Sequence record: LC647030.1
DNA length: 64,000 nt
Source of the DNA: Staphylococcus phage vB_SsapH-Golestan-100
Strand: one strand, 5' to 3'
Shown: one piece after another, positions 39,815-48,283 of the stretch
Position numbering within the stretch: position 1 is the stretch's first letter
Layout of the letters: every line of letters begins with the position of its first letter
Translations under genes and position numbers: made by a program
Notes under the pieces: model-generated
Seen by the model: only the letters and a program-made list of their open reading frames with translations
Databases searched by the model: none
Told to the model about the DNA's origin: nothing

Positions 39815-40585
39815 ATGGATAATTTACAATTTAGAGCGTGGGATAAATTTGATAAGGAAATGCTTGAAGTACATGGTATTAATTTTGATGCGCAAGGCAT
39901 TTGGACTAGAGAAATGATTGATGATGAAAGTGACGGTAATTTCATTTTCTTGGATGAGGTTGAACTCCTCCAATCAACAGGACTTAAAGATAAGAATGGT
40001 GTAGAAATATTTGAGGGAGATGTTGTTAAACACGATGCTGTACCTAATCCATTTATAAGTAATAAAAATTTTGAAATTATTCGAGCTAGAAGTGGAGAAT
40101 GGCGTATGGATAATTATAGAGGTGGTCAAGTATTAGCGTTTAGTAATCAAGAAGTAGAAGTAATTGGAAACAAATTTGAACACCCAAATTTACTAGAGGA
40201 GCGAGGGATAATGATACCGAAGTTTAGAGCGCATTTAAAAGAAAGACCATATTTAAAAGGAACAGGAATCATTGTAGATGTACAAGAGATTAATTATAAA
40301 TATGAAGAGATTGTATATGAAAGTAGAAAATACAAAGAAGTAGCAGATTTTAAGGATGTCGAACTACTCCAATACACAGGTCTTACAGATAAGAATGATA
40401 CTGAAATATTTGAAGGAGACATACTTAAGTATTGGGGAGAATGTAGACCTGTAGTATCCCATGAAGCTTCTTTTGGATGGATTGAAGGAGGAGATTACAT
40501 ACCCTTCTCTATGATGTGCATCTCAGAGATTGGTAATGCTGAGGTTGTAGGTAACATCTATGAAAACAAGGAGGAACTATTATGA
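39815..40585 (+). CDS. tandem YopX-domain protein
   Basis: Two repeats of LLQ(S/Y)TGL(K/T)DKN..EIFEGD(V/I)(V/L)K ... (V/A)EV(I/V)GN(K/I)(F/Y)E(H/N). Confidence 0.75.
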   Translation: MDNLQFRAWDKFDKEMLEVHGINFDAQGIWTREMIDDESDGNFIFLDEVELLQSTGLKDKNGVEIFEGDVVKHDAVPNPFISNKNFEIIRARSGEWRMDNYRGGQVLAFSNQEVEVIGNKFEHPNLLEERGIMIPKFRAHLKERPYLKGTGIIVDVQEINYKYEEIVYESRKYKEVADFKDVELLQYTGLTDKNDTEIFEGDILKYWGECRPVVSHEASFGWIEGGDYIPFSMMCISEIGNAEVVGNIYENKEELL

Positions 40586-41112
40586 TTTTTTGTCCAATGT
40601 GTCAATCAAAACTTGCAAATGTAACTAAAGATGTAACTTATAATGTATGTACTAGCAAGGACTGTCGGTTCTGTGAGATTACAGAGCCACCAAATATGAT
40701 GGGTGATAGACCTAACACCTATAAAATATCCTTAAGTAAACAGGTATGGGAAGATGTCACTAGTGACATCGACTTAGAAGATACGGGTATTGATAACTAT
40801 ACAGAACTACTAGAGGGTGCCATTACAAAACTCTTAGATGCTTCAAATCCTTCCTCTACCTTCTATCAAGTAGAGTATTTCAATAGAGACCCCTACACAG
40901 AATACCTAGAAGACGAGAGACTAGTACTTAGAGATTCTACTATATACAGTAACAAAGAAACCCTCATCAAGAAACTAGAATCACAAGGGTTTAAATACCA
41001 TACTCTAGATGACTTATATAGTAGTAACAACTTAGAAAACCCTATAGCATATTTTGGCGCAGGTAATCAAGTCCATGCTAAGATACACAAACTAACATTA
41101 GAATCAGAATAA
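40582..41112 (+). CDS. N-terminal zinc-ribbon protein, 176 aa
   Basis: CPMCQS...CTSKDCRFC. Confidence 0.6.
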   Translation: MIFCPMCQSKLANVTKDVTYNVCTSKDCRFCEITEPPNMMGDRPNTYKISLSKQVWEDVTSDIDLEDTGIDNYTELLEGAITKLLDASNPSSTFYQVEYFNRDPYTEYLEDERLVLRDSTIYSNKETLIKKLESQGFKYHTLDDLYSSNNLENPIAYFGAGNQVHAKIHKLTLESE

Positions 41113-41125
41113 GGAGGTCGTAGAT

Positions 41126-41605
41126 GTGAAAAGCAAAAAGGACATAAGAAAAATAAAAAAAGAACATAAACGCTTAGAGAAGGAAAGAAAATCAAGATAC
41201 CATTCCGAGTTTAAGGAAAGAGGCTCTCACATGCTTTGGCTTATTAATGAAGTCATAGATAAGGCGCTAGAGTCTAATGATTATACAGGTAATGGTAAGG
41301 AAATAAACATTACTAAACTATCTTCAAAATCCAAACCAGGTACTCTTACTACAGAGGTAGATAACAAAGACATATATTATGAGTTAGATTATCTATATAC
41401 GTTAACAGTATACTTAGAATTACCAATAGACTATAGACTATACAACTCTATAAAACTAAAATACAAAGATGTGAAGTATAAGGTTACTCACTTAGAAAAG
41501 GTAGGAGACCGTATTATAATGGAATTAAAGGTCAAAAATGATGAGCGCAATATTAATAACATCACATTATCTATTAACGACCATATGTTTATAAACTTAA
41601 AATAG
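41126..41605 (+). CDS. hypothetical protein with basic N-terminus, 159 aa (GTG start)
   Basis: TAAGGAGG RBS. Confidence 0.55.
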   Translation: MKSKKDIRKIKKEHKRLEKERKSRYHSEFKERGSHMLWLINEVIDKALESNDYTGNGKEINITKLSSKSKPGTLTTEVDNKDIYYELDYLYTLTVYLELPIDYRLYNSIKLKYKDVKYKVTHLEKVGDRIIMELKVKNDERNINNITLSINDHMFINLK

Positions 41606-41618
41606 GAGGAGAATTATA

Positions 41619-41924
41619 ATGACAAATAACTATGTATACGTATTAAAGAGCACGATAAGCATGTATGAGGTACCAACAATTGATGGTATCTTTGATAATA
41701 AAGAGGACTTAGTAAAAGTAATGAAGGAGCTTAATATCAAGAAGAGAGAAGAAGTTAGAAACGGGGAACCTAATCTTATCTACTATACGGTTGATGACTA
41801 CATTAAACAAACTTACAAAGAAGAGACTGTAAAACGTTATTACTTTGTCCACAAGGTTCCCTTAAATCATTACGATTGGTTTTTAGATAACAGGTATTCA
41901 GAAACTACTGATTTAGACATTTAA
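41619..41924 (+). CDS. hypothetical protein, 101 aa
   Basis: ATAGGAGGAGAATTATA RBS. Confidence 0.55.
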   Translation: MTNNYVYVLKSTISMYEVPTIDGIFDNKEDLVKVMKELNIKKREEVRNGEPNLIYYTVDDYIKQTYKEETVKRYYFVHKVPLNHYDWFLDNRYSETTDLDI

Positions 41925-41933
41925 TAGTAAGCT

Positions 41934-41970
41934 AGAGTATAGGTATATATACCTATACTCTATTTTTGTT
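41934..41970 (+). terminator. rho-independent terminator with a perfect 14-bp stem
   Basis: agagtataggtata / tatacctatactct, then a T-rich tail. Confidence 0.7.
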
Positions 41971-41989
41971 TATAGTCTGAGTAGGATAG

Positions 41990-42480
41990 GGCTATACTAC
42001 CACTCCCACTACCACTCCTGAAACAGCTCTTTTTAGGGTAAAAAAATTTTGGCGGTGATTTTTATTTTATATAAAATATAATAAATTCTAAAATTATTAA
42101 TTATAAAAGTAAGGGGTGGTGGGGTATACCTAGATTATGATAGAGGAGGGGTATAGTTAGGTAGGAGATAGGGGTGGTAGGGGTACAGTAGGGGTAGGAA
42201 GTGTTTTGTGAAACGGTACAAAAAAATTGGGGGTGAAAGTTGGGAAAAATTTTAGTAGCCTGGGGTAGCCCCGTAACCCCTCATGCATACCCCCTTTTAT
42301 GGATTTCAAATAAGGGGTGCTTATCCCTTGACTTCTATTAATAAATGTGCTCCCGACCTCATCCACAGATTGCCCCCACTGTCAAGCATTAATTTAATAT
42401 TGCCCCAGCACTCATAAACTATTATTTGTGTTTGCTTCAATCTATTTAATTATCTGTTTAGCCTTCAGCAAACACAAAGA
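41990..42480. repeat. noncoding G-tract/C-tract repeat region (G-quadruplex-prone) bordering the GC-richer cassette
   Basis: ccactcccactaccactcc at ~42000 opposes ggggtggtgggg, gaggagggg, ggggtggtaggggtacagtaggggtagg at 42110-42200; further G-runs ggggtagccccgtaacccc. Confidence 0.4.
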
Positions 42481-42506
42481 AGGACAAGACCAGCTGGTCT
42501 TGTCCT
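42481..42506 (-). terminator. palindromic hairpin terminator for the minus-strand acidic gene
   Basis: aggacaagacc-agct-ggtcttgtcct (perfect 11-bp stem), 13 nt downstream of the stop at 42519. Confidence 0.5.
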
Positions 42507-42518
42507 CTTCTCTCTTTC

Positions 42519-43634
42519 TTATCTGTTTATTTGGTCTATAATCTCCCCATCTTTGATGATGATAAACATGTAATCAGTTTCTACGATTGTGTGACCATCA
42601 ACAAGATAATAATTTTTGTTTACTTCTTGCTGAGCCTCTCTAAAATAGCGCTTAGACTTGAACAGTGTTATAGTTCCATACTCAGTATTTAATGCTGTGC
42701 TAACTGGTGTTACTGCTCGAACGTCTGTAATGCCCACAGACACCCCAAAGTCGTCCATAATAGCGCCTGCATACCCTAAGGCCTGCAAGTCGTAAAGAAC
42801 CTGTACGCTGTCGTCCTGTTGTGATAGAACGTCCTCTGCCTGCTCCTCCTCTATCATGTCGATGGCCTCACCAACTGTCAGAGGTTCCTCCTCTTCTTCT
42901 GTGTCTATCTCTTCGAGTTCATCTTGAAGCATTCTAGCTTCATACTCGAAGATAGCCCACGCAAGATAGTTCTTGTCCTGCGTTGTTAGTTCTAGAGGGT
43001 CGGCCTCATACATGCAGATGCTTTCTGCTTCTAATTCTATGGCCTCCTCCTGCTCTATGTCGTCCATGTCGTCCCAGTCGTCCCCGTAGTAGTCTATAAC
43101 GTTATCTTGTGCTATCTCTCTTATCTTTTCCTCCGCTTCCTGGTGTCTATCGTCTGCGCTATCTACTGGGAACATATCCGACAAGTCCTGAATACCGTCC
43201 CAGCTCTCCAGCTCCTCAATTCCGTAGACCTCAGTTACAAAGTTTTTTATTTCTTCCTCGTGCTCCTCGTAGTATGCCTTTGTGTCCTTGTAATAGATTA
43301 AGTGATTAACCATGCCCGATTCACAGCCATGGCTCACAATGTCATCAAGTAAGCCCTCAGCATCTTCTGAGTCTTGAGACATCTCTAATAAGTAGTTAGC
43401 TACATCTCTTTTTACATCATTGTCGATATATAAGAATGTGCCGAAGTAGTTAACTATAAAAGTATCTTTGATGGCTTCTGTGATTTGCTCTTGTGTCATC
43501 TCTATAAATGCATCTGTTGTGTTCTCTACTTCATCCGATAGGTTGAAGCGGTTAACTAAATATCTTGTATCTGCTTTGTCTGAATATGCTTTTGTGAATG
43601 CCTCTAAATTAGTGTTTGTTTTTAAATTTTTCAT
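42519..43634 (-). CDS. hyper-acidic protein, 371 aa (DNA-mimic/anti-restriction candidate)
   Basis: Very high D/E content (runs EEIDTEEEEEP, DDWDDMDDIEQEE); GC-richer codon usage than the flanks. Confidence 0.7.
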   Translation of the reverse strand: MKNLKTNTNLEAFTKAYSDKADTRYLVNRFNLSDEVENTTDAFIEMTQEQITEAIKDTFIVNYFGTFLYIDNDVKRDVANYLLEMSQDSEDAEGLLDDIVSHGCESGMVNHLIYYKDTKAYYEEHEEEIKNFVTEVYGIEELESWDGIQDLSDMFPVDSADDRHQEAEEKIREIAQDNVIDYYGDDWDDMDDIEQEEAIELEAESICMYEADPLELTTQDKNYLAWAIFEYEARMLQDELEEIDTEEEEEPLTVGEAIDMIEEEQAEDVLSQQDDSVQVLYDLQALGYAGAIMDDFGVSVGITDVRAVTPVSTALNTEYGTITLFKSKRYFREAQQEVNKNYYLVDGHTIVETDYMFIIIKDGEIIDQINR

Positions 43635-43683
43635 TTTTTAATATCCTTCCGAGCGTTTGCGCTCTTGTTATTTGGTATGCCTA

Positions 43684-43713
43684 ATTATAGCATTAATAAT
43701 TAAAATCTGTAAA
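43684..43713 (-). promoter_or_regulatory. repeated early-type promoter (TTTACA-18-TATAAT) plus conserved 5'UTR hairpin, copy a
   Basis: Minus strand TTTACAgattttaattattaatgcTATAAT, then gagcg-caaa-cgctc hairpin and GGAAGGATATTAAAAAATG. Confidence 0.5.
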
Positions 43714-43751
43714 GCGATAAGCCCCAATTAAAAGGGCAATTTTACACCCCT

Positions 43752-43892
43752 TTAGATTTTACGTAATACAACGTTTAACGCTCCAAAACCTTCAATTGCT
43801 TTATGGTAAAACTCTTGTGCACTCTCAACATTATCAAAGTAAAGTACAATGTTATCTGCTTGGTGTTCGATTCCTATTGATATCATAAACAT
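43752..43892 (-). CDS. 46-aa ORF (not in the ORF track)
   Basis: AAGGAGGGctaaacATG; MFMISIGIEHQADNIVLYFDNVESAQEFYHKAIEGFGALNVVLRKI. Confidence 0.35.
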   Translation of the reverse strand: MFMISIGIEHQADNIVLYFDNVESAQEFYHKAIEGFGALNVVLRKI

Positions 43893-43912
43893 GTTTAGCC
43901 CTCCTTTAATTA

Positions 43913-44194
43913 TTAAACTTCATAGTTGAATAGGTAAGCGTCCACCTCATCCAACCACTCAAAAGATTTATATTGTTCTGTGTCCCAATCCTCAAAACCT
44001 AATTGCTCGAATGTGCCCCACTGCGTAGTAAATAAGTGCCCCACCGTGTCCCCTGCAAGTCTCACAAGCACGTTGTTATTCTCTTTTAGAAACTCGTAGG
44101 AGTTGCCTCTAAACGTTTGACTGATTGCTTGCCCGTTCTCTAATCCCTGCATTACCTCGATTAATCTTGTGTTATCGTTGTTATAAATTTTCAT
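43913..44194 (-). CDS. hypothetical protein (~93 aa; start at MKIYNND)
   Basis: AAAGGAGttttaaaaATG. Confidence 0.55.
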   Translation of the reverse strand: MKIYNNDNTRLIEVMQGLENGQAISQTFRGNSYEFLKENNNVLVRLAGDTVGHLFTTQWGTFEQLGFEDWDTEQYKSFEWLDEVDAYLFNYEV

Positions 44195-44296
44195 TTTTAA
44201 AACTCCTTTTAAATATCTGTAGTAGTGATTTTTAATCACTCTATAGAGCCACCAGCAACGCTTAAGGCTTGCTGGTAGTTCTAACAATGATTAAGC

Positions 44297-44635
44297 TTAA
44301 ATAACTTCTACAGTGTCCACCTGCTTGAAATAGGCTTGCTGTTCTGTTGTTACGTCCTGGCCTACCGTTTTTAAAATGTAGCTTGTTTCTGGCACGTGCT
44401 GAAGCATTCCCGTGCGCTGGTGTGCAATGTGCCAAAAGTTCGGAGTGTAACGGTCGATGTCGTCAAACAAGATTTCAATTATTCTATGGTCTTCCGTTCT
44501 CATTCCATCGTAGAACATCCCACTTATTAAAGTACCATCAGACATGATATAAATTGCTTCTGCTAGGCTCTCTGTAGTCTCTACGCCCTCAGCCTCGAAC
44601 ATTTCAATAATTTGATTGTTAGTTAATTTTTTCAT
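44297..44635 (-). CDS. hypothetical acidic protein, 112 aa
   Basis: ORF in the GC-richer cassette. Confidence 0.6.
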   Translation of the reverse strand: MKKLTNNQIIEMFEAEGVETTESLAEAIYIMSDGTLISGMFYDGMRTEDHRIIEILFDDIDRYTPNFWHIAHQRTGMLQHVPETSYILKTVGQDVTTEQQAYFKQVDTVEVI

Positions 44636-44655
44636 TTTTTAATATCTCCTTTTAT

Positions 44656-44862
44656 TTAAACAATTTTGTAAAAACTTTTACCCTCTTTAAGTTCCCTTAA
44701 GTCTAAATGGTCGATTAAACTATAAACGTCTTCACTGTTATAATTATCTTCAAAATCTTCAAGGTTTTCAAAATCTGTAATATCTAGCCATATTTGAAAG
44801 TCACTATTTTTTAATTGTACTTGCTTTAATTCCTCATTGTGTGTATTAAATGTAATTTTCAT
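44656..44862 (-). CDS. hypothetical acidic protein, 68 aa
   Basis: Preceded by the repeated promoter/UTR element. Confidence 0.55.
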   Translation of the reverse strand: MKITFNTHNEELKQVQLKNSDFQIWLDITDFENLEDFEDNYNSEDVYSLIDHLDLRELKEGKSFYKIV

Positions 44863-44898
44863 TTTTTAATATCCTTTCGAGCTCCTGCTCTGTTATTT

Positions 44899-44928
44899 GG
44901 TATACCTAATTATAGCATTAATAGTTAA
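44899..44928 (-). promoter_or_regulatory. repeated early-type promoter plus 5'UTR hairpin, copy b
   Basis: TTTACAgaatttaactattaatgcTATAAT; gagc-agga-gctc hairpin; GGATATTAAAAAATG. Confidence 0.5.
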
Positions 44929-44952
44929 ATTCTGTAAAGCGATATGCTTAAA

Positions 44953-45281: not shown

Positions 45282-45329
45282 TTTTTTTTTTTTTTTTTTT
45301 TTGACTTTTTATCAAGAGTGTGATATAGT
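45282..45329 (+). promoter_or_regulatory. T21 homopolymer fused to a consensus promoter (TTGACT-17-TATAGT) for the downstream plus-strand block
   Basis: T-run 45282-45302 overlaps TTGACT 45301-45306; TATAGT 45324-45329. Confidence 0.5.
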
Positions 45330-45359: not shown

Positions 45360-45860
45360 ATGAAAACAGTAAACCAAAAAGACATGGCAATACTCTGTAG
45401 TTTACACTATGAATGGTTAGATAGTAATGGTAAATCAGGAGAGAGATTAGACTTAAGAAATAAAAAGCTAGAAAATGTAACGCTAATTAATAAAGATTTA
45501 GAAGAAGCTTCATTTAGGGGTTGTATATTTAAGCACTGTAGAATAGAGGATAATAACTTTGAGTATGCAGACTTCTCTTCTACACTATTCTTAGATGATT
45601 GTGAGATAAGTGGTAATGACTTTACAGAAGCTCATATCACTAACTTAGAAGGTATAGAGCTCTATTCAGTAGATAATATAGGGACATATTGGGGGAAGGC
45701 TACCTATAATGTGACAGAGGATACCGTATTTGCAGGATGTTGGAAAGGTTCCCTTGAAGATTTCTTAAAAATAGGGCTTGACAGAAATAAAGGTAACATG
45801 GTAGAATGTAATAAGATACAAAAAACTTATGAATTTTTTAATAGTCTAGAGGAGGAATAA
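45360..45860 (+). CDS. pentapeptide-repeat protein (Qnr/MfpA-like DNA-mimic fold), 166 aa
   Basis: About 15 consecutive A(D/N)(L/F)xx-type pentads: ASFRG CIFKH CRIED NNFEY ADFSS TLFLD DCEIS GNDFT EAHIT NLEGI. Confidence 0.75.
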   Translation: MKTVNQKDMAILCSLHYEWLDSNGKSGERLDLRNKKLENVTLINKDLEEASFRGCIFKHCRIEDNNFEYADFSSTLFLDDCEISGNDFTEAHITNLEGIELYSVDNIGTYWGKATYNVTEDTVFAGCWKGSLEDFLKIGLDRNKGNMVECNKIQKTYEFFNSLEEE

Positions 45861-46103: not shown

Positions 46104-46994
46104 ATGAAAACATTAGCTATTTTAAATAAGGGATTGCCTGATAGCTATTATGTACCCTACTTATTAAGAGAGGAAGAAGCAGAGATACACTATCGTTATA
46201 AGTTTGACTTTAAAGACCTAACTAAAGAGAACCTAGACAACGTAGATAAGATTGTTCTCTTTGGGTTTCCTTACAAAGAAAAACGTGATAGAAGACCTGT
46301 AAATCAAGTAGAAAGTACATATAGAGGTATGGAGATTGTACACACGTGCAGTTATGGTGACATGATACCTGACCAACGCTCTTATGTAGACAACTCTGTT
46401 AAAGCACCTATACATCACTTAGCTTTACTTTTAGGTGTAGAAGCAGACACTATTGTAAATCTGTTAAATAGTTATCATAAATATGATTTGTCTGATAGAA
46501 TGGTATTGGTTGTTAGAGACCTACTAGAGACATACAAAGAAAGATTTATAGACATCTTTACTCAAGCAGAGTACAATGTAACTAACTTAATTAAACAGCA
46601 TGTGTTTATCATAGAGCAAGTACATAAACAAAGACAGGAATACCTTGCACATAAACAACAGTCAGCTCAGATTTATAACAAAGATGATGTGGGTATTGCT
46701 TTTCTTTATGCAGAACGCTTTACAAATGAGGTAGCTCATGCTATAATGAATAATACCAGCTTAAGTCAGTACAGCAAGAAGGTTGTAATCGTAGGTAAGC
46801 ATTTACCTAAGTCTGACAAGTTAGTAGTTAGAACAGAGAATATATCAGCTGATGCTATAGCTAGAATTATCAATCCTGATAATGGTAGAGGAAACTCATA
46901 TGCCTCTAGCGTGTACTTCAGTCCTGTAAATTCAATGATAGGTGATAAGCTGTTCGAGTATTTAACAACTAGAGAAGACATAACAAAATTTTAA
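46104..46994 (+). CDS. hypothetical protein, 296 aa
   Basis: AAAAGGAGGAGTAGT RBS. Confidence 0.6.
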   Translation: MKTLAILNKGLPDSYYVPYLLREEEAEIHYRYKFDFKDLTKENLDNVDKIVLFGFPYKEKRDRRPVNQVESTYRGMEIVHTCSYGDMIPDQRSYVDNSVKAPIHHLALLLGVEADTIVNLLNSYHKYDLSDRMVLVVRDLLETYKERFIDIFTQAEYNVTNLIKQHVFIIEQVHKQRQEYLAHKQQSAQIYNKDDVGIAFLYAERFTNEVAHAIMNNTSLSQYSKKVVIVGKHLPKSDKLVVRTENISADAIARIINPDNGRGNSYASSVYFSPVNSMIGDKLFEYLTTREDITKF

Positions 46995-47023
46995 ATAAAA
47001 CATAATCAGGAGGAATTTTCTTT

Positions 47024-48283
47024 ATGGAAATGGAAAAACAGTATGCAATAATTTTTGGAGTGTTATTAGCTACAGAAAATAAAATCACATCAGCAAAGGT
47101 TAACAAGATAGCAGTAAATAAACTAGGGTATGAACGTATGCCTGCATTAGAGATACAAGAACTATACAACGACTTAGCTAATGACCCCACTTATGATGAA
47201 ATCATTACAAAAGCTATCCAAGGGGAATATAAGTTAGAGGACTTGAGAGACTATAAGTCAGAGCAGGTATTTGAGTCTAATGACTACATTAATGAGGTAA
47301 CACCATCTATTATTGCACAGGAAGAACAGCGTGCTTCTATGAGGCACTTTAATAAGGTAATGAAGAGTGGAGCTTATATGGCATCACTAATGAATAACCT
47401 TAAAGTAGACCTAGAGGATGCATTCAGTGACTTTGATGTCGTTGAATATAAAAAACCTGAAGTGGTTAACTTTGTAGAAGATGATTCAGAGACTATGGTT
47501 CTTACTTTGTCTGACTTTCATGTAGGGTTTGCATTTACTGACTCTTTATCAGATGGGTATAACTTTGAGGTACTTAAAAAACGTTTAAAAACTTACTTAG
47601 ATAGAGTACATGAAATGATTGCTGATAGAAATATCTCAAACTTCCGTATCTACTTTGTAGGAGACCTTATTGAACACGTTTCTATGAGAAATGTTAACCA
47701 AGCATTTGAGACAGAGTTTACATTATCTGAACAGATTGCTAAAGGTATTAGGTTACTATCTGACATCATTGAAGACCTTAACAAGTATGGTAACGTTACT
47801 TTTAGTATCGTCCATGGTAATCATGATAGACTACAAGGTAATAAAAATGATAAGATTTACAATGATAGCGTAGCTTACATTGCTTTAGACCAACTATTAT
47901 TCTTACAAGAACATGGTGCTTTCCAAGGGGTAAACATTATAGATAACAGAAAAGACATTCACAACGCAGTTGATACAGTATACAACTATAACATTGCTTT
48001 AAATCACGGTGAGTCTTTACCTAATAAGAAACCTGTAATGCACAAGTTACCTAACAGTCAGTCTGTAGACATCTTAATTACTGGTCATGTACACCACTTC
48101 TATGTTATTCAAGAGAACAAGCATAGCTTACATGTAGTTAACTCTAGCCCTATTGGGTATAATAACTATTCCAAAGAGCATATGTTTGGTTATACAAGCC
48201 CTAGTCAAACAGTTATGATTTTATCAGACAATGAAAAACGCTCACCTGAGATAATTCCAGTATTCTTGAATGGAGATGCTTAA
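47024..48283 (+). CDS. calcineurin-like metallophosphoesterase with ~150-aa N-terminal extension
   Basis: MPE motifs LSDFHVG, GDLIEH, GNHD, GHVHH; no SbcC/Rad50 partner adjacent. Confidence 0.75.
   Translation: MEMEKQYAIIFGVLLATENKITSAKVNKIAVNKLGYERMPALEIQELYNDLANDPTYDEIITKAIQGEYKLEDLRDYKSEQVFESNDYINEVTPSIIAQEEQRASMRHFNKVMKSGAYMASLMNNLKVDLEDAFSDFDVVEYKKPEVVNFVEDDSETMVLTLSDFHVGFAFTDSLSDGYNFEVLKKRLKTYLDRVHEMIADRNISNFRIYFVGDLIEHVSMRNVNQAFETEFTLSEQIAKGIRLLSDIIEDLNKYGNVTFSIVHGNHDRLQGNKNDKIYNDSVAYIALDQLLFLQEHGAFQGVNIIDNRKDIHNAVDTVYNYNIALNHGESLPNKKPVMHKLPNSQSVDILITGHVHHFYVIQENKHSLHVVNSSPIGYNNYSKEHMFGYTSPSQTVMILSDNEKRSPEIIPVFLNGDA

Follow-up and report, generated by a model that had tools for sequence, protein, structure and literature searches.

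A modular, acidic DUF7222 protein of Staphylococcus phage vB_SsapH-Golestan-100 as a tentative early anti-defense factor

The ArdA dimer adopts an elongated three-domain fold that mimics about 42 bp of bent B-DNA. To our knowledge, no anti-restriction functions have been assigned in the large lytic Staphylococcus phages (Twortvirinae) that are used for therapy. Elsewhere in the Herelleviridae, the SPO1 protein Gp44 carries a flexible DNA-mimic domain between other modules and inhibits RNA polymerase (PMC8208478), and Gp46 inhibits HU (PMC8892312). Here, we describe a gene of Staphylococcus phage vB_SsapH-Golestan-100, which has a genome of 136,433 bp and has been placed in the Herelleviridae, subfamily Twortvirinae (PMC11951804). 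The gene occupies positions 42519 to 43634 of a 64,000-nucleotide stretch of the phage sequence (record LC647030.1), which we call the window. A first-pass annotation made from the letters of the window had proposed that the gene product, a protein of 371 amino acids (aa), is a DNA mimic in the style of the anti-restriction proteins Ocr and ArdA.

Our analysis places the protein elsewhere. The gene had already been deposited as encoding a hypothetical protein, and its core family is catalogued as a domain of unknown function; what is new is that the 371-aa protein is an enlarged variant of this uncharacterized family, DUF7222. We tentatively read it as an early establishment or anti-defense factor that binds a host DNA-handling protein. 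An anti-defense role is plausible because the gene context of the family links DUF7222 to anti-restriction and anti-CRISPR genes. This context leaves an anti-defense role standing as a reasonable hypothesis, whereas the proposed relationship to Ocr and ArdA found no support.

The gene is a complete coding sequence on the minus strand, located where the first-pass annotation had put it, with an ATG start and 371 codons before the stop. It is a genuine gene, because the deposited "hypothetical protein" of vB_SsapH-Golestan-100 is 100% identical to its product, dozens of homologues exist, and Pfam detects DUF7222 (PF23864) within it. The Pfam match covers aa 83 to 242 and profile positions 5 to 108 of 108, with an E value of 2.2e-16 and 60.5 bits (cut-off, 27 bits), and close homologues match the same profile without exception (30 of 30). 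PHROGs assigns the protein to families 27501 and 2543, both of which are listed without function. The suggestion that it might found an undescribed family can therefore be set aside, as the family is already catalogued as Pfam DUF7222 and PHROG 27501. NCBIfam and PADLOC returned no matches, and literature searches for DUF7222 and PF23864 found nothing, with DUF3846 and DUF2958, two domains that are discussed below, mentioned only incidentally.

An exhaustive profile search retrieved 1,099 representative DUF7222 clusters (50% identity) at an E value of ≤1e-3, including 225 at ≤1e-10. Typical members are single-domain proteins of 115 to 140 aa. Among 149 newly retrieved members, drawn from the best matches, medians are 133 aa for length, −15 for net charge, and 4.4 for the isoelectric point (pI); 123 of these members have a pI below 5. 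The family signature reads (H)GCxSGxVxxLIYYxDT...FYxxHxxEI, followed about 40 residues on by DPL...NxLAWFxFEE. Both of its motifs, GCxSGxVxxLIYYxDT and NxLAWxxFE, are present in the 371-aa protein, and their columns are invariant or nearly so across four alignments (A2-A5). In 150 diverse sequences, Cys, Ser, and Gly of the conserved loop are invariant. The family-invariant motifs G-C-x-S-G, LIYYxDT, and NxLAWxxFE consist of small, aromatic, and hydrophobic residues and show no charge pattern. The conserved positions, together with the invariant Cys and Ser, argue for a specific contact or an active site over a pure polyanionic decoy; the latter, which the first-pass annotation had offered as an alternative, is disfavored because the residues that do not vary are not the charged ones.

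The 371-aa protein had also been presented as a mimic of unusual size. Its size is better explained by a modular build, in which a typical DUF7222 core is joined by a clade-specific acidic insert, a linker, and two extra modules. All of the following parts are encoded on the minus strand and are given from the N terminus to the C terminus.

43419..43634 (−): N-terminal extension, aa 1-72; found only in 365-aa homologues (P0007, P0008, and P0015) and missing from the commoner 315-aa forms; a low-confidence helix is predicted.
42897..43418 (−): DUF7222 domain, aa 73-246 (Pfam match, aa 83-242); an all-alpha bundle in the model.
43281..43331 (−): family signature 1, HGCESGMVNHLIYYKDT, aa 102-118; mostly loop between helices 2 and 3, entering helix 3.
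42993..43169 (−): clade-specific acidic helical insertion, aa 156-214; 59 aa with 23 Asp/Glu and 3 Lys/Arg, situated between the two motifs and missing from typical DUF7222 proteins of 115 to 140 aa.
42936..42980 (−): family signature 2, QDKNYLAWAIFEYEA, aa 219-233; located where the final long helix begins.
42810..42914 (−): polyacidic linker, aa 241-275; 17 Asp/Glu and 0 Lys/Arg; predicted local distance difference test score (pLDDT) below 50 from about aa 245.
42522..42809 (−): conserved C-terminal module, aa 276-371; homologues are 88 to 90% identical here, and the prediction places four beta-strands at aa 341-370.

Across the family, signature 1 shows little or no variation at residues G, C, S, G, L, Y, D, and T. 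Mean identities among the 23 homologues that have the C-terminal module are lowest in the acidic insert (51%) and highest in the linker and the C-terminal module (88 to 90%). The linker keeps 90% identity among Twortvirinae-type homologues despite its very low model confidence. The DUF7222 domain comes in four formats in staphylococcal phages. It stands by itself in a 191-aa protein, is combined with a different N-terminal domain in proteins of about 321 aa, carries the C-terminal module in the 315-aa forms, and has both extensions in forms of 365 to 371 aa. The C-terminal module matches Pfam DUF7335 at aa 317-365, but with 17.7 bits (E value, 0.005) the match falls below the gathering threshold of 27 bits; it recurs at this sub-threshold level in 13 of 30 family members, and we take it as a hint only.

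The acidity that drew attention to the protein is real. Asp and Glu account for 94 of its 371 residues (25.3%) and Lys and Arg for 25 (6.7%), giving a net charge of −69 and a pI of 4.05; 38 residues are aromatic. It is the most acidic product among the 77 open reading frames (ORFs) of at least 100 aa in the window, with a net acidic fraction of 0.186 compared with a mean of 0.030 (standard deviation, 0.054; z = 2.9) and with 0.139 for the runner-up. Both acidic strings quoted in the first-pass annotation are found, DDWDDMDDIEQEEAIELEAE at aa 185-204 and EEIDTEEEEEP at aa 241-251. The protein is not, however, rich in Asp and Glu throughout, as had been stated, given that aa 1-275 hold 81 of the 94 acidic residues and that the last 96 residues have an ordinary composition. 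Electrostatic DNA mimicry by the protein is unproven, since what is known is its bulk charge.

Structure prediction gave a confident model of the DUF7222 domain. The full-length AlphaFold model has a pLDDT of 57, with low confidence at aa 1-59 and aa 245-340, and was kept out of the fold searches in favor of a domain model of aa 70-250. This model, built with 150 sequences, comprises nine helices (pLDDT, 88; predicted template modeling [pTM] score, 0.79). Foldseek found no match to it in the Protein Data Bank (PDB), and among the viral models of BFVD it found only DUF7222 proteins, from SEP9 (E value, 5e-8; template modeling [TM] score, 0.67) and Bacillus phage Mater. Searches of PDB sequences with the single sequence and with a profile gave chance matches only, to apolipoprotein A-II and ribosomal protein S13 (E value, about 1). 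As modeled, then, the DUF7222 fold is one without a solved relative in the libraries that we searched.

Membership in the Ocr or ArdA family was considered as a candidate explanation and rejected by the Pfam, PDB, hhalign, and fold searches. Pfam at an E value of ≤1 yielded neither an ArdA nor an Ocr match, in agreement with the first-pass observation that ArdA signature blocks are absent, and both families were likewise missing from the PDB sequence and profile searches at an E value of ≤10. When the DUF7222 profile was aligned with hhalign, the probability was 0.2% against the bona fide ArdA domain (PF07275) and 0.6% against Ocr (T7 gp0.3), the sequence of which was verified as that of 1S7Z. 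The 371-aa protein shows neither the elongated three-domain fold of ArdA nor a likeness to Ocr (PDB 1S7Z) in sequence or fold. A relationship to these proteins is thus lacking in sequence, in profile, and in fold.

Further leads come from gene context across the family. In phages, DUF7222 genes lie within a few kilobases of the record ends in many genomes of Enterococcus Schiekvirus, in Herelleviridae of Mammaliicoccus and Staphylococcus, in Bacillus phage Thrax1, and in Brevibacillus phage Sundance, and the genes near ends sit amid arrays of small uncharacterized genes. DUF7222 also occurs fused to DUF3846 in one protein (P0263) and to DUF2958 in another (P0260), while at a further locus (L100, 7340-9265) DUF3846, DUF7222, and DUF2958 are encoded by separate, adjacent genes. 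DUF3846 is itself fused to ArdA, LPD18, and DUF4316 in a polyvalent protein (L092, 5332-7104), the neighbors of which are an ArdC-N/DUF3849 protein and a MutS domain I protein. The DUF3846-DUF7222 fusion gene lies upstream of genes for a type IV secretion system (T4SS) coupling protein, TrbL, and a VirB4-like protein, and two genes for single-stranded DNA-binding protein (SSB) adjoin the DUF7222-DUF2958 fusion gene. From these arrangements, DUF3846, DUF7222, and DUF2958 look like one functional group of mobile-element entry proteins.

A second kind of neighborhood is found in gut Clostridia, where 32 of the 40 evaluable loci have genes for a PcfK+MutS_I protein and PcfJ downstream of DUF7222 on the same strand, at a median distance of 1.2 kb. 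In metagenome-assembled genomes of Clostridia and Christensenellales (L003-L009 and L011-L090), the cassette runs from small ORFs through DUF7222, an uncharacterized 137-aa protein, and further small ORFs to a PcfK-MutS domain I fusion, PcfJ, and a protein of about 100 aa. Genomes often contain several copies of the cassette, with three on CALWKW010000002.1, and its variable flanks are rich in defense genes (restriction-modification [R-M], SIR2, and TIR). PcfK is the Pfam domain of the anti-CRISPR protein AcrIIA9, and ArdA is common around AcrIIA9 homologues (PMC6739104). On an E. faecalis pheromone plasmid, the gene order is an "AcrIIA9 family" gene, PcfJ, and SSB, and the E. faecalis AcrIIA9-family protein aligns to the Clostridial PcfK-domain protein with an E value of 1e-7. 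Pfam scans of the conserved Clostridial neighbor families returned only DUF6809, which is uninformative. When the Clostridial cassette proteins were searched by phmmer with the neighboring ORFs of the window and with the N-terminal modules of the staphylococcal proteins, DUF7222 was the sole shared family. Although circumstantial, the context of the family consistently points to functions that would be needed when DNA first enters a cell.

At the locus itself, the following signals and an adjoining gap were identified.

43684..43713 (−): promoter of the sigma-70/sigma-A type, TTTACA-18 nt-TATAAT, extended by TG and matching at 11 of 12 positions; directly upstream of the DUF7222 gene.
43644..43650 (−): ribosome-binding site GGAAGGA, 9 nucleotides before the ATG, as read from the sequence.
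42480..42507 (−): intrinsic terminator with a 12-bp stem (6 G-C pairs), a 4-nucleotide loop, and a T-rich tail; begins 12 nucleotides past the stop codon.
41960..42420 (no strand): short G-rich repeats (TAGGGGTGGTAGGGGT and variants) in a noncoding gap of about 600 bp, inside which the putative repeat boundary at about 42264 falls.

Because it has its own promoter, ribosome-binding site, and terminator, the DUF7222 gene is a self-contained transcription unit. It had been called the first large gene of a putative early cassette. It is indeed the largest gene of a leftward block of small genes that runs from 45180 to 42519 and diverges from a rightward block starting at 45360; in the direction of transcription, however, it is the last gene of that block, and it has a promoter and terminator to itself.

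The nearest annotated relatives are the S. capitis phages Fi4S2 and S2G3, which share 89% nucleotide identity with the window across 41000-44945. The Fi4S2 annotation lists two copies of the gene, at 256-1203 and at 141193-142140, and repeats all neighboring genes with an identical offset of 140,937. This duplication puts the gene at the edge of a long terminal repeat, its position in S2G3 as well, and no other gene separates the left copy from the physical genome end. The window is syntenic with Fi4S2 across the repeat junction, and by this synteny Golestan-100 would have the same terminal repeat, with a boundary in the window near 42264. In SEP1 and K, which are also Twortvirinae, terminal-repeat genes are "very early" genes (PMC11265418), and for this reason the DUF7222 gene of Golestan-100 may be expressed early as well; SEP1 and phage K have no homologue of the 371-aa protein. 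The early-type position noted in the first-pass annotation is thus backed by the terminal-repeat location in Fi4S2 and by the strong sigma-70-like promoter.

The DNA around the gene has further features. The segment of the window that contains the gap has a GC content of about 0.40, compared with about 0.33 elsewhere, and scans of the flanking gap with Rfam and for tRNAs gave no matches. A 69-aa ORF inside the gap (42157-42366, minus strand) is probably spurious, as is its Fi4S2 counterpart. Just upstream of the repeat junction, 39815-40585 (plus strand) encodes a 256-aa protein with two YopX domains (Pfam E value, 7e-41). Homology to Fi4S2 stops at about 44945, and the layout to the right of the leftward block is unlike that of Fi4S2. 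A 290-bp segment (43910-44199) is 88.7% identical to the 89-kb siphophage VB-SauS-SA2. This match indicates a mosaic exchange of early-region genes between Herelleviridae and Sextaecvirus-like phages, and DUF7222 is common to both groups.

The rightward block opens with a 166-aa pentapeptide-repeat protein (45360-45860, plus strand; Pfam Pentapeptide_3, E value, 7.5e-9), the gene of which has a sigma-70-like promoter (45301-45329) in front of it. Pentapeptide-repeat proteins, Qnr and MfpA among them, represent a classical DNA-mimic fold, and on structural grounds this neighbor may be a better DNA-mimic candidate than the 371-aa protein. After it, 46104-48283 (plus strand) encodes an exopolyphosphatase-like protein (PHROG 1850) and an SbcD-type exonuclease (PHROG 284).

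How might an establishment or anti-defense factor of this kind work? We suggest a modular acidic protein with a DUF7222 core that is probably made very early in infection. DUF7222 proteins would be carried, in phages as in conjugative and integrative elements, in the parts of the DNA that are expressed first in a new cell. There, the protein would bind a host DNA-handling protein and so act in a stoichiometric manner. Specific contact would be made by the conserved GCxSG/LIYYxDT loop together with the NxLAWxxFE helix, and the clade-specific acidic insert and the polyacidic linker may contribute a nucleic-acid-like negative charge. The conserved C-terminal module, which is limited to staphylococcal phages, could provide a second specificity.

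Several observations count against this proposal. Searches found no homology to any characterized inhibitor. The invariant Cys and Ser in the conserved loop could indicate catalysis rather than passive binding. On the genomic side, tblastn searches of the PLSDB plasmids with the domain and with a typical family member gave no DUF7222 match. The Clostridial loci are related to one another and so are not independent, most of the neighboring genes have no known function, and guilt by association is a weak form of argument. Finally, the terminal repeat in Golestan-100 is predicted from synteny with Fi4S2, and early expression is suggested by the analogy with SEP1 and K.

By extension, DUF7222 as a whole might be a new and widespread anti-defense or establishment family with a fold lacking a solved relative, carried both in Herelleviridae terminal repeats and in cassettes of conjugative and integrative elements that resemble leading regions (with AcrIIA9/PcfK, PcfJ, SSB, DUF3846, and DUF2958). 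The Twortvirinae protein would then be a small "polyvalent" version in which the core is extended by an acidic segment resembling nucleic acid and by a second effector module that is specific to staphylococcus. We consider this generalization possible but doubtful.

A different reading starts from the relatives of the phage rather than from those of the domain. The 371-aa protein could be a host-takeover inhibitor like SPO1 Gp44 and Gp46, that is, an acidic, partly disordered mimic that binds RNA polymerase, HU, or another housekeeping DNA-binding protein. Those two proteins set a precedent within the Herelleviridae, the order of parts is alike (a folded module, an acidic flexible segment, and a C-terminal module), and the terminal repeat in which the gene would lie has been described as a host-takeover region (PMC11265418). 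We nevertheless regard this reading as unlikely, because the DUF7222 core is shared with nonlytic elements: it is also found in integrated and conjugative elements, sometimes in several copies per genome, for which shutting down the host would bring no benefit. Moreover, phage tblastn searches show no sequence similarity to the SPO1 proteins.

We think it rather improbable that DUF7222 is an enzyme, adaptor, or chaperone for the incoming DNA or proteins of the element itself, for example in the processing of single-stranded or terminal DNA or in the assembly of a replication complex, with acidity as an incidental property. The invariant Cys, Ser, and Gly of the loop would fit such a function, the DNA-handling neighbors (SSB, MutS domain I protein, PcfJ, and T4SS genes) are compatible with it, and a fold without a solved relative leaves room for catalysis. 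Even so, a helical domain of about 110 aa presents no recognizable catalytic fold, invariance does not extend to the His residues near the motif, the fusion partners occur in polyvalent proteins alongside ArdA, and many small phage proteins are acidic yet are not enzymes. Least probable is a true B-DNA mimic of the Ocr/ArdA type that relieves restriction by filling the groove in which type I R-M (or BREX) enzymes bind DNA: the extreme charge (net −69, with 25% Asp and Glu), a linker with 17 acidic and no basic residues, the early-type gene position, and the use of DUF7222 in the place of ArdA as a fusion partner of DUF3846 all fit, but the hhalign probabilities are negligible, the conserved residues form no phosphate-like array of carboxylates, and the acidic insert is the least conserved segment of the protein.

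If the anti-defense reading is correct, the terminal repeat would encode a defense inhibitor, with consequences for host range and phage engineering. The fusions and neighborhoods give DUF7222, a family of about 1,100 clusters at 50% identity with no assigned function, a concrete and testable hypothesis, and they delineate a DUF3846/DUF7222/DUF2958 group found in the company of ArdA and AcrIIA9-type genes. Should the hypothesis prove wrong, a false "giant Ocr" lead has still been removed, and the size of the protein has been explained by its modular architecture.

Compared with known systems, the 371-aa protein resembles T7 Ocr (gp0.3) and ArdA in being highly acidic and in having its gene at an early or leading position in a mobile element, and DUF7222, like ArdA, serves as an alternative fusion partner of DUF3846. 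Unlike Ocr and ArdA, it is 2 to 3 times longer and multidomain, and its conserved motifs are small, aromatic, and hydrophobic rather than arrays of carboxylates. It parallels the early SPO1 proteins Gp44 and Gp46 in its predicted location in a Herelleviridae terminal-repeat region, and Gp44 likewise combines folded modules with an acidic flexible segment; however, there is no detectable homology to either protein, and the DUF7222 core extends to nonlytic mobile elements. TifA, an inhibitor of type IV restriction from enterococcal phages, is comparable as an acidic, two-domain, early protein active in a Gram-positive host, but its N-terminal domain is SH3-like, whereas the DUF7222 domain is helical. 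A link between the C-terminal module and TifA, which is partly beta-rich, was considered and dropped: tblastn of the full protein and of the module against enterococcal phage proteins showed no similarity, and tblastn of the module finds only S. capitis phages. The closest comparison remains that with typical DUF7222 members, with which the 371-aa protein shares both signature motifs and the predicted fold, as in the Foldseek match to the SEP9 model. It differs from them by a 59-aa acidic insertion inside the domain, by 72 extra residues at the N terminus, and, toward the C terminus, by the polyacidic linker and the 96-aa module.

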